Part shown: positions 44,773 through 63,549 of the stretch, in pieces
Layout of the letters: each line of letters begins with the position of its first letter
Position numbering within the stretch: position 1 is the stretch's first letter
Position numbers and translations under genes: made by a program
The notes under the pieces: model-generated
The model's input: the letters and a program-made list of their open reading frames with translations, nothing else
Database searches by the model: none
Told to the model about the DNA's origin: nothing
From: an uncultured Alphaproteobacteria bacterium
GTDB taxonomy: Bacteria > Pseudomonadota > Alphaproteobacteria > Micavibrionales > UBA2020
DNA: 64,000 bases
Assembly (NCBI GenBank): GCA_966211335.1
Contig: CBIHNF010000001.1
Span: forward strand, 76,078-140,077
Reading direction: 5' to 3'

Positions 44773-45391
44773 CCCCAACCCCAATTCGCCCTTCCGGCTG
44801 GGCCAGTCGCTGCTGCGCGAATTGCAGGATGCGGAGGGCGATGCCGATACCGCCATCAAGCTCATTGCCCTTGGCGCGGATGCGAATGCGGAAGATATGC
44901 ATGGCTTGAGCTGCCTTGCCATCGCCGCGCGCCGCGGCTGGGCGGATGTGACGGCGGCGCTGCTGCAGTCCGACGCAAAAGTCGACTGGCGCAACCAGGA
45001 CGGCTGGACGCCGCTGCTCTGGGCCGTCACCAACGGTCACACGGCCGTCGCGGAAGTTTTGCTGAAATACAAAGCCGATGTGAACGCGCAGAACGAGAAC
45101 AGCGATACGCCCCTTATCATGGCGACGATGATCGATGATGAACCTGTCCGTGTTCCCATGGCGAAACTGCTGCTGAAACACGGCGCGGATGTGACGATTG
45201 AAGGCAAGAACGGCCAGCGCGCCCATGAATCCGCGATCGAGCAGCATGATGATGCGATGATAAAATTATTGCAGCCCTTATTCGACCGCACCCAGCCGGC
45301 GATCACGCCCCGCGCGCTTCAGTCCGCGACAACGCTGGAGAAAGACCTGCGGCCGTTGAAACCTGTAAAGTTCAAGCCGCCCGGGCATTGA
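44762..45391 (+). CDS. Ankyrin-repeat protein with basic C-terminal tail
   Basis: DGWTPLLWAVTNGH, ADVNAQ...DTPLIMA, GQRAHESA; ends LRPLKPVKFKPPGH. Confidence 0.88.
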   Translation: MPNSPNPNSPFRLGQSLLRELQDAEGDADTAIKLIALGADANAEDMHGLSCLAIAARRGWADVTAALLQSDAKVDWRNQDGWTPLLWAVTNGHTAVAEVLLKYKADVNAQNENSDTPLIMATMIDDEPVRVPMAKLLLKHGADVTIEGKNGQRAHESAIEQHDDAMIKLLQPLFDRTQPAITPRALQSATTLEKDLRPLKPVKFKPPGH

Positions 45392-46094
45392 TGGACTGCA
45401 GAATTTCCGCCGCCGCCGCCGCAGGGTTTGCCGCCTGCGTAATCGGCCGGCCGATCACCAGATAATCCGCGCCCAGCGCCGCCGCCTCGACAGGCGTCAT
45501 AATGCGCTTCTGATCGCCCGCTGCACTTCCTGCAGGGCGAATGCCGGGAACGACGAGCAGCGTTTCGGGTTTCAGAATTTTGCGCAGCACGGCGATTTCC
45601 TGCGGCGAACAGACAATCCCGTGAAGGCCGCAGTCTTCAGCGAGTTTCGCGAGGTGCTGTACCTGTTCTGCTGCGGGAGCCTTCTGGCCGATTTCGCCAA
45701 GGTCCTTGTCATCCAGCGTGGTGAGGACAGTGACGCCAAGTAATTTCGGCGCGGCAACACTGTGTTCAACTGCGGCTTCGGCCGCCGCCTTCACCGCCGC
45801 CTGCATCATGGCACGGCCGCCGGAGGTGTGAATGGTGATGAAGTCCGGCGCGGCCTTGACGGCGGAGCGGATGGCGCCCGCAACCGTGTTGGGAATATCA
45901 TGTAATTTGAGGTCGAGGAAAATTTCAACCTTGCCACCCGCCGCCGTGCGCAGCTCTTTGATGCAGGCAGGACCTTCTGCGGTAAAAAGCTCGAGCCCGA
46001 TTTTAAAACCGAGGTTTGCGCCGGAGAGTTTTTCCACAAGTATTTTCGCCTCTGCAATATCCGCAGCGTCAATGGCGCAGAAAATACCTGTCAT
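45372..46094 (-). CDS. pyrF: Orotidine-5'-phosphate decarboxylase
   Basis: FKIGLE, DLKLHDIPNTV, VPGIRP, DQKR, VIGRPIT. Confidence 0.97.
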   Translation of the reverse strand: MTGIFCAIDAADIAEAKILVEKLSGANLGFKIGLELFTAEGPACIKELRTAAGGKVEIFLDLKLHDIPNTVAGAIRSAVKAAPDFITIHTSGGRAMMQAAVKAAAEAAVEHSVAAPKLLGVTVLTTLDDKDLGEIGQKAPAAEQVQHLAKLAEDCGLHGIVCSPQEIAVLRKILKPETLLVVPGIRPAGSAAGDQKRIMTPVEAAALGADYLVIGRPITQAANPAAAAAEILQSINARAA

Positions 46095-46105
46095 GGGAAA
46101 ATTCC

Positions 46106-46570
46106 TTATTTAATTTCGAAGATCGCATCCACCTCGACCGCCGCGCCGAGCGGCAAAGCGGCGACGCCGACGGCGGCACGCGCATGTTTACCAGCCTCCG
46201 CGAAAACCGCGACGATCAAATCAGACGCGCCGTTGATGACTTTGGGATGATCATAAAAATCATGCGTCGAGGCGACAAAGCCGCCGAGGCGCAGGCAGCG
46301 CGTAATGCGGCTAAGATCGCCGTTCAGCGCGGCATTCGCCTGCGCGATGATATTGATGGCGCAGGCCTTCGCTGCCTCCTGCCCTTCCTCGACCGACATA
46401 TTTTCCCCAAGCTGGCCTTTGATGAGATGGCCGTCTTTCGACGGCAGCTGGCCGGAGATATACAGAGTGTTGCCGGAAATGGTGTAGGGCACATAGTTGG
46501 CCAGCGGCGCCGCCAGCTGCGGCAGCACGATGTTGAGGGCAGTGAGGCGTTCGGAAATTTTGTCGGACAT
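46106..46570 (-). CDS. RidA/YjgF family protein
   Basis: ANYVPY, YISGQLP, FYDHPKVINGASDL, HARAAVG. Confidence 0.93.
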   Translation of the reverse strand: MSDKISERLTALNIVLPQLAAPLANYVPYTISGNTLYISGQLPSKDGHLIKGQLGENMSVEEGQEAAKACAINIIAQANAALNGDLSRITRCLRLGGFVASTHDFYDHPKVINGASDLIVAVFAEAGKHARAAVGVAALPLGAAVEVDAIFEIK

Positions 46571-46637
46571 GAAAAAGCTCCTTTAGCGATGAACCTAAAG
46601 GAGCTTATGCCGTCATGCAACGGTGGCTTGAAGCGAC

Positions 46638-46811
46638 CTACATATTGCTGAGGTCGAGCTTGGCGAAATTGTTGTATTCAACGTCCGGCGCGACGGTTGC
46701 GACCATCACTTCCTTGCGCGGCGAGGAGGCGGAAAAGCCGGAGCGGAGATCCGGCATGCTGGCAGCCCAGGCCTCGGCTTCGGGGAAGTTTGCTTCTTTA
46801 ATGACGTTCAT
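46638..46811 (-). CDS. Untracked 57-aa hypothetical protein
   Basis: Manual translation MNVIKEANFPEAEAWAASMPDLRSGFSASSPRKEVMVATVAPDVEYNNFAKLDLSNM; host-like GC3; AAGG upstream. Confidence 0.6.
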   Translation of the reverse strand: MNVIKEANFPEAEAWAASMPDLRSGFSASSPRKEVMVATVAPDVEYNNFAKLDLSNM

Positions 46812-46870
46812 GTTGTGCCTTGCCTTCTTTACGCCGGTAAGATGCGCTTCTTTATTCTGGTAATAGGTTC

Positions 46871-46903
46871 AGTATAGGCTTTGAAAGATTAACACAGCGT
46901 TAA
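46871..46903 (-). promoter_or_regulatory. Perfect CtrA box plus -10 element
   Basis: TTAA-N7-TTAA at 46889-46903, then 12 nt, then TATACT (46871-46876) on the minus strand. Confidence 0.75.
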
Positions 46904-47086
46904 GATTGGCAGCGTTCAAGTGGCTTGAGAATATATTTTAAGTAATTGAAAATATAAGGAAATGTAGTGGGAACTTTGTCCATTTCATATGTTTTACATA
47001 TTATTTGCTATTTTAAGCCTCTTTCGGCATAATGTTGCTCACCTTTCCGCGGGGAGAATCGGCAAGGGCATCTAGGGGGAAGAATC

Positions 47087-47920
47087 ATGAGTTTGCTGAA
47101 AGCCATCTTTAATCGCGCCGCGCCTGCGCTGACGCCGGAGCAACAGCTGGCGCTGGATACTGCGCTGCTGGATGCCGCCCAGTTCAATAATGTCGAGAAG
47201 ATAAAAGAGCTGCTGGACAAGGGCGCCAATATCAACGCCCGCGCGCCGAATACGGAAGACACTCCCCTCATCATCGCCAGCCGCGAAGACGATCTGGCAG
47301 ATGTCGTCAACTTCCTGCTCGACCAGAAGCCCGACCTGACCCCCGTCAACAGCATCGGCCAGACGGCATTACACGTTATTCTGCGGGAGCATAACAGCGC
47401 TGCCTGCGCCATCCGCATGATTAACGCGGACGCGCCATTGAATGGACGCGACATGCACGGCGCGACCCCCGCCTTCTGGGCGGCGCAAGACGGCCGCACT
47501 GATGTAATGGAAGCGCTGATCGCCAAGGACGCCGACCTGACCATACCCAACAACGCGGGCGAACTGCCGCTGATGCATGCGACGAAACTGCCGCACCCCG
47601 CAACGGTTGCCGTGATGCTGAAAGCGAATGCCGGCATCGACGTGCCGGACGAGGAAGGCATGACGGGCCTGATGTGGTCTATTCTGCTGCACAAGCCCAA
47701 ACAGGCGATGTTGTACATAGAAGCGGGCTGCAACATTATGATGCAGAACAAAGCCGGCGAAAACGCGCTCGACCTTGCGAAAAAAGAAGGCCTTGATGAG
47801 GTTGCGACCGCCCTGCGCCTGAAGATGGCAGAAAATATGGCGCCGATTTTGGAAGGCGTCAAAATCAAGCCGATCAAAACCGTCCGCTTCGCCGCGAAGC
47901 CGCCGACGAGCTTGCGTTAA
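47087..47920 (+). CDS. Ankyrin-repeat protein with basic C-terminal tail
   Basis: GANINAR...DTPLIIA, GQTALH, GATPAFWAA, GELPLMHA, GMTGLMW; ends IKPIKTVRFAAKPPTSLR. Confidence 0.92.
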   Translation: MSLLKAIFNRAAPALTPEQQLALDTALLDAAQFNNVEKIKELLDKGANINARAPNTEDTPLIIASREDDLADVVNFLLDQKPDLTPVNSIGQTALHVILREHNSAACAIRMINADAPLNGRDMHGATPAFWAAQDGRTDVMEALIAKDADLTIPNNAGELPLMHATKLPHPATVAVMLKANAGIDVPDEEGMTGLMWSILLHKPKQAMLYIEAGCNIMMQNKAGENALDLAKKEGLDEVATALRLKMAENMAPILEGVKIKPIKTVRFAAKPPTSLR

Positions 47921-63534: not shown

Positions 63535-63549
63535 TTAACAAATCATTAA
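63535..63549. promoter_or_regulatory. Perfect CtrA box between the divergent FecR genes
   Basis: TTAA-CAAATCA-TTAA. Confidence 0.7.

Follow-up and report, generated by a model that had tools for sequence, protein, structure and literature searches.

A conserved gene for a small acidic protein behind a putative CtrA-activated promoter in Micavibrio-like bacteria

The window, as we call the whole 64,000-nucleotide stretch of DNA analysed here, carries on its minus strand a gene for a 57-amino acid protein that is conserved and maintained by purifying selection in Micavibrio-like bacteria. Considered together with its surroundings, this gene probably constitutes a stand-alone unit, in which a single gene for a lineage-restricted, acidic and soluble protein of 56–75 residues would be activated by CtrA and terminated by a hairpin. 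The original prediction had described a perfect TTAA-N7-TTAA box, a 12-nt gap, TATACT, a leader of approximately 50 nt and a 57-codon ORF, all of which are present on the minus strand in the following arrangement:

46903..46889, minus strand: CtrA-type box TTAACGCTGTGTTAA (TTAA-N7-TTAA), covering the predicted -35 region of the promoter of the small gene
46876..46871, minus strand: -10 hexamer TATACT, assigned by consensus only and separated from the box by 12 nt
46863..46854, minus strand: TTACCAGAAT, covering +1 to +10 of the predicted transcript
46812..46864, minus strand: predicted 5' leader of approximately 52 nt, with the Shine-Dalgarno sequence AAGG (46821..46818) or GAAGG (46828..46824)
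46811..46638, minus strand: 57-amino acid ORF MNVIKEANFPEAEAWAASMPDLRSGFSASSPRKEVMVATVAPDVEYNNFAKLDLSNM, encoding an acidic, soluble protein of a family without assignment

The plus-strand letters at 46889-46903 are TTAACACAGCGTTAA. The leader length of approximately 52 nt assumes a start located approximately 7 nt past the hexamer, the distance from the end of the hexamer to the ATG being 59 nt. As read from the sequence, the ORF starts with the ATG at 46811 and comprises 57 codons, with the TAG stop at 46640..46638. In the other loci, Shine-Dalgarno sequences of the GGAG or AGGA type are located 6–10 nt before the ATG.

Homologues of the small ORF were identified at the same syntenic position in 24 loci, drawn from a single Micavibrio-like family and representing six genera or more, and the gene order (a dead NrdJ-like gene, an ankyrin gene, the small ORF, a RidA-like gene, pyrF and accD) is constant in all loci examined. 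In tblastn and profile searches, an open, stop-free homologue was found, one per genome, in most members of the family: the small gene is present in 13 of the 14 genomes searched in the window's genus and in every genome sampled from a second genus, and two further genera also carry it. Diverged small ORFs that are recognisable by eye occupy the syntenic spot in three further genera (L033, L035 and L037), and none of the more than 200 genomes searched from other families of the order contains the gene. Among the closest pairs, dN/dS values range from 0.10 to 0.25 (Nei-Gojobori), and the variability at the third codon position is 0.39, versus 0.25 and 0.21 at the other two. The gaps and length changes in the alignment of 13 protein sequences are frame-preserving, including those in the linker, the length of which varies, and the residues F9, P10, E11, A14, W15, F26, E45, Y46, F49 and A50 are invariant. 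Judging from these comparisons, the ORF is a genuine, selection-maintained protein gene that is confined to Micavibrio-like bacteria. The codon usage is host-like, as had been proposed, with a GC3 of 0.75 in the ORF and of 0.70–0.80 in the neighbouring genes. An 82-amino acid ORF on the opposite strand (46615..46863, plus strand) was also considered and was discarded, since it is the minus-strand frame that accounts for the conservation, for the variation by codon position and for length changes that leave the reading frame intact.

The gene had been thought to be untracked and missed by gene callers. This is not the case, because exactly the same 57-amino acid protein is already present in a public predicted-protein collection, and relatives are annotated at NCBI as 'hypothetical protein' (MBI1216159.1, MFN7113853.1, MBL8711928.1 and MDF3022883.1). 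The proposal that the protein belongs to an undescribed family was borne out by the open syntenic homologues, the alignment, the dN/dS values and a profile search against 1.84 billion representative proteins, which yielded only 22 clusters, all of 56–75 amino acids. The family is thus new but small, and its value lies in providing a candidate for later genetics.

Two deviations were observed within the window's own genus. The proteins of L021-L029 represent a second, very different allele class (MGHEEKFPDGDAWAATITDDFKSK...YETFANLDLTKLGL) with only approximately 33% identity to the window's protein, despite belonging to the same genus. In L032 (G013:C5), the RidA-like gene and the hairpin described below have been kept; the upstream small ORF is apparently eroded, and only an unrelated 37-codon frame is left in its place. 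This looks like a lineage-specific loss of the small gene.

The box proved to be conserved in relatives as well. A homologous site (TTA[AG], TTCA or TTAT-N7-TTAA), followed by a -10-like hexamer (nAT[AT]CT or CATAAT), is present in all of the 24 loci. The half-site nearer to the -10 hexamer is TTAA in 23 of the 24 loci, and the farther half-site is TTAG in 10, TTCA in 7, TTAA in 5 and TTAT in 1 of the 23 loci scored by the scan. A perfect box is found in only 5 of the 24 loci, the usual form being TTAG- or TTCA-N7-TTAA. In 22 loci, 11 nt separate the box from the -10 hexamer, and only the window and its closest relative have a spacer of 12 nt; this gap would place the box at approximately -39 to -25 relative to the predicted start, and no sigma-70 -35 hexamer is found at this position in the small gene's promoter. 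The box, the spacer and the -10 hexamer are retained even in L033, L035 and L037, where the protein is barely recognisable; therefore, the promoter architecture is the most stable feature of the locus and, in these alignments, is better conserved than the protein itself. As originally counted, the window contains exactly two perfect matches to TTAA-N7-TTAA (0.21 expected; 3 of 100 shuffles reach two), the second of which is located at 63535-63549. The promoters of L021-L029 contain three half-sites in 11-bp phase (TTAA-N7-TTCA-N7-TTAA).

A further conserved element, TTACCAGAAT, is located at the predicted start. All 11 of the aligned intergenic regions share its CAGAAT portion without change, and the element has been kept in 13 loci and is absent from the diverged subgroup L021-L029. 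Among the 13 closest loci, it is better conserved than the CtrA box. Nine loci read GAATC within the element, and thus contain a GANTC methylation site that is not present in the window. With its context, TTACCAGAAT is unique in the genome. The possibility that it is a common promoter element was discarded, because it was found at the small gene's promoter alone; it may instead be the site of a second regulator or an RNA element of the 5' end. Together with the -10 hexamer, it forms an imperfect palindrome (ATACTG-N10-CAGAAT).

Genome-wide evidence is consistent with recognition of the box by CtrA. The genome encodes a CtrA ortholog at C2:44348-45043, which scores 402.5 bits against NF045991 (cut-off, 350); the identification rests on this NCBIfam score. 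In the whole genome, TTAA-N7-TTAA is present in 71 copies, nearly all of them intergenic, versus 21–40 copies for the other spacings from 3 to 13, indicating a 2–3-fold enrichment of N7. A -10-like hexamer is located at exactly 11 or 12 nt from 14 of the 71 boxes, and at 10 or 13 nt from none. Boxes with a -10 hexamer account for 10% of the oriented N7 sites versus approximately 2% for most other spacings, with N6 also reaching 10%. Other genes located behind an N7 box with a -10 hexamer at 11 or 12 nt are as follows:

C1, approximately 1,017,960: DivK-type single-domain receiver
C1, approximately 1,059,750: TadE-like pilus protein
C1, approximately 1,063,440: prepilin peptidase A24
C2, approximately 25,250: 68-amino acid putative membrane protein
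Also behind an N7 box and a -10 hexamer: a DUF2336 protein, a CMD-family protein, another ankyrin protein and several orphans

Pilus genes and DivK-like genes are typical targets of CtrA. Taken together, the 14 promoters with a box and a -10 hexamer may serve as a draft of the CtrA regulon. The small gene would add a well-defined and conserved candidate target to this regulon, which is undescribed in Micavibrio-like bacteria; a literature search for CtrA in Micavibrio yielded nothing relevant (one paper, on another subject), and a search for Micavibrio attack-phase promoters also yielded nothing relevant. The region upstream of ctrA, which is encoded on the minus strand, contains TTAATCTTTATTAAC (TTAA-N6-TTAA) followed after 9 nt by TATACT (C2, approximately 45,090-45,125), and this promoter resembles the autoregulated ctrA P2 promoter of Caulobacter (PMC11264516).

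In Caulobacter, most CtrA-activated promoters contain one near-consensus site at -35 (PMC11264516). The full-motif promoters of Caulobacter crescentus (ctrA P2, fliQ, fliL and pilA site 1) have a site of the TTAA-N7-TTAA type at -35, where the box of the small gene is predicted to lie, and no sigma-70 -35 hexamer, and in both sets single-base deviations of the half-sites are tolerated and pilus genes and divK-like receivers are among the targets (PMC11264516). Unlike these promoters, that of the small gene belongs to an uncultured Micavibrio-like bacterium and has a TATACT(G)-like -10 hexamer and an additional conserved element at +1. We consider it likely that the small gene is under the control of CtrA. 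Phosphorylated CtrA would most likely activate the gene from the TTAA-N7-TTAA site at -35, located 11–12 nt upstream of the TATACT-type -10 hexamer. If CtrA activates the gene in this way, expression of the gene should coincide with CtrA activity. CtrA of Caulobacter is active in the predivisional and swarmer stages, and by analogy the small gene would be expressed in late-division and free-living (attack-phase) cells. The compact promoter, which consists of the box, 11–12 nt and TATACT, might also be used as a reporter of CtrA activity in Micavibrio-like organisms.

Upstream of the small gene lies a divergent gene with a promoter of its own:

47087..47920, plus strand: ankyrin-repeat gene, divergent to the small gene
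47005..47033, plus strand: sigma-70-like promoter of the ankyrin gene (TTGCTA-17-CATAAT), with blocks conserved across the alignment

Several other readings of the small gene's promoter were weighed against CtrA control. It is rather unlikely that a different regulator uses the TTAR-N7-TTAA element, or that the element simply stands in for a -35 hexamer by being AT-rich, so that the gene would be free of cell-cycle control. The predominance of TTAG and TTCA over TTAA in the farther half-site would fit such an explanation, as would the AT-rich nature of the intergenic region, given that TTAA pairs of any spacing are almost all intergenic, and the better-conserved element TTACCAGAAT hints at further regulation. 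However, the enrichment is specific to the N7 spacing, the 11/12-nt geometry recurs at the promoters of pilus and DivK-like genes, and a CtrA equivalog is encoded in the genome; furthermore, characterised Caulobacter sites deviate in a similar manner, such as CTAA-N7-TTAA at fliQ and AAAA-N7-TTAA at fliL (PMC11264516). The original prediction had also allowed for the box serving the ankyrin gene on the other strand. Because the half-sites are palindromic, the orientation of the box is not readable from the box alone, and a divergent ankyrin neighbour is present in the window and in 11 of the 12 related loci, with none detected on the short contig of L015. Nevertheless, we regard it as improbable that the box serves the ankyrin gene, or both genes, instead of the small ORF alone. 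The ankyrin gene has its own promoter approximately 100 nt from the box, with the conserved consensus TTGCnA-17-[CT]ATAAT; the box lies 127 to 216 nt from the ankyrin ATG, depending on the locus, in contrast to the 11–12 nt that separate the box from the small gene's -10 hexamer in 24 of 24 loci; and the plus-strand hexamer located 12 nt past the box is TCAAGT, a poor -10. The variable distance, the separate ankyrin promoter and the lack of a usable plus-strand -10 hexamer all assign the box to the small gene. The palindrome across the -10 hexamer and the start offers yet another reading, because the LexA box of gammaproteobacteria has the form CTG-N10-CAG and all of the 13 closest loci contain the palindrome: the small gene might encode a division inhibitor of the SOS type under LexA control. 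This is extremely unlikely. The genome contains a single copy of AT[AT]CTG-N10-CAG[AT]AT, and the looser [AT]CTG-N10-CAG[AT] is no more frequent than its counterparts with other spacings, so the palindrome defines no regulon. In its left arm, the palindrome coincides with the TATACTG -10 that is common in this promoter class, and it is missing from L021-L029. In addition, SidA-like SOS inhibitors are membrane peptides, whereas the small protein contains no membrane segment.

Downstream of the small ORF, the following features separate it from the next genes:

46570..46606, minus strand: intrinsic terminator of the small gene, with the stem at 46606..46575 (AAGCTCCTTTAG / CTAAAGGAGCTT) followed by a T-run
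46592..46620, minus strand: predicted sigma-70-type promoter of the RidA-like gene and pyrF, with TTGCAT (46620..46615), 17 nt and TAGGTT (46597..46592)
46106..46570, minus strand: YjgF/RidA-like gene (PF14588), with the ATG at 46570
45372..46094, minus strand: pyrF, after the RidA-like gene

The terminator is a 12-bp hairpin located 31 nt past the small gene's stop codon and is followed by TTTTT, and its 3' arm is the Shine-Dalgarno sequence (AAGGAG) of the RidA-like gene. The -10 hexamer of the downstream promoter, TAGGTT, sits in the 5' arm and loop of the hairpin. As many as 20 loci of six genera retain the hairpin, and 3 of its 10 pairs show compensatory changes. L011, L012 and L016 contain a canonical terminator in place of the hairpin; the arm that masks the Shine-Dalgarno sequence has been lost from these loci, and the downstream promoter has been kept. 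TTG[CAT]nn-N17-TA[GA]nnT was found in every locus inspected, including the three without the hairpin. An Rfam search of positions 46000-47300 detected only a chance snoRNA match below the threshold.

This arrangement raises the question of whether the ORF might be a leader peptide or upstream ORF that attenuates RidA-like/pyrF expression, with the hairpin acting as the switch. The pyr genes of other bacteria are controlled by attenuation, the ORF is always located directly upstream of RidA-like/pyrF, and the hairpin sequesters the Shine-Dalgarno sequence of the RidA-like gene and is followed by a T-run. Both the layout of terminator and promoter in the loci and the selection acting on the protein argue against this explanation, which we consider very improbable. 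The protein is under purifying selection and contains two conserved motifs across its length; the stop codon is located 30–60 nt before the hairpin, which is too far for ribosome coupling; and no alternative anti-terminator pairing was seen. Moreover, a conserved sigma-70 promoter is present in the hairpin region of every locus, and in L011, L012 and L016 the hairpin has given way to an ordinary terminator, with the downstream promoter retained. Rather than a leader of RidA-like/pyrF, the small gene is, on this sequence evidence, a separate transcription unit with which RidA-like/pyrF are not co-regulated.

In the proposed arrangement, transcription of the small gene would stop at the hairpin and T-run, and the transcripts of RidA-like/pyrF would begin at about the AAGGAG Shine-Dalgarno sequence and would not contain the 5' arm. 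In read-through RNA, the Shine-Dalgarno sequence of the RidA-like gene would be paired in the hairpin, and translation would be poor. Poor translation of read-through RNA would insulate the housekeeping genes RidA-like/pyrF from the cell-cycle promoter, and the conserved layout suggests that such insulation may operate. In the general insulation of bacterial genes, a hairpin and T-run likewise end the upstream unit and a downstream promoter starts inside; the present layout differs in having been deduced only from sequence and conservation. The overlap of terminator, promoter and Shine-Dalgarno sequence may illustrate a means of shielding housekeeping genes from a neighbouring cell-cycle gene.

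The small protein is hydrophilic, with a pI of 4.56 (family median, 5.07) and a GRAVY value of -0.2, contains neither Cys nor His, and has no hydrophobic run of at least 12 residues and no membrane segment. Two conserved aromatic/acidic segments, FPE-x-[ED]-AWAA and EY-x-x-FA-x-LDL, are separated by the variable linker. No match to Pfam or NCBIfam was obtained for any of the 35 family members, and searches of PDB sequences with the protein and its profile yielded nothing meaningful. AlphaFold2 models three short helices over FPEAEAWAAS, LRSGFS and DVEYNNFAK, with a pLDDT of 65 and a pTM of 0.23-0.24 from 13 or 35 sequences, the deeper alignment being no better; with this low-confidence model as the query, Foldseek found no matches in the PDB. 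The lack of a Pfam or NCBIfam match agrees with the original statement that the protein resembles neither SciP nor a Flp pilin. SciP, a transcription co-regulator in the CtrA regulon of Caulobacter, is also a small cytoplasmic protein encoded behind a CtrA box. Unlike SciP, the present protein is shorter (57 amino acids) and acidic and has no sequence-family match or confident fold, and neither sequence (Pfam and NCBIfam) nor fold (Foldseek) placed it in the SciP family. The hydrophobic N-terminal segment of a Flp/Fap pilin is absent, and no Flp_Fap match was detected.

According to the model and the conserved segments, the small protein probably works by binding another protein. That it is largely disordered and binds a partner through the two conserved aromatic segments is the simplest reading of the AlphaFold2 model and the conservation patterns, but a tentative one and on balance doubtful. 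Candidate partners are the products of the conserved neighbours, namely the ankyrin protein and the dead NrdJ-like protein. A more elaborate scheme would be a clade-specific switch of the cell cycle or predation phase, in which the protein, made only when CtrA is active, docks via two aromatic helices on a conserved partner (the ankyrin protein or the catalytically dead NrdJ-like protein) and thereby controls, in attack-phase cells that are not growing, either replication or the supply of DNA precursors; we regard this scheme as speculative and improbable. Two interpretations of the C-terminus were discarded. A shared C-terminal motif was ruled out because no other real genomic ORF ends in an LDLSN-like tail. 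The beta-clamp-binding motif is QL[SD]LF, and this interpretation was dropped because the fifth position of the small protein's tail is Ser or Thr and not hydrophobic.

The divergent intergenic region contains two additional blocks, one of which is the following:

46939..46951, minus strand: conserved IHF-like block TTTCAATTACTTA at the centre of the region, with the box lying approximately 40 nt downstream

This block is called IHF-like by comparison with the IHF consensus, WATCAANNNNTTR; among the aligned intergenic regions, the match to this consensus is perfect in L014, L015 and L016. The other block, ATATGTTTTACATATTA (46987-47004, plus strand), is partly palindromic (CATATG..CATAT) and has been kept across genera. 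It is located directly upstream of the ankyrin -35 hexamer, where it might act as an operator or as an UP element for the ankyrin gene.
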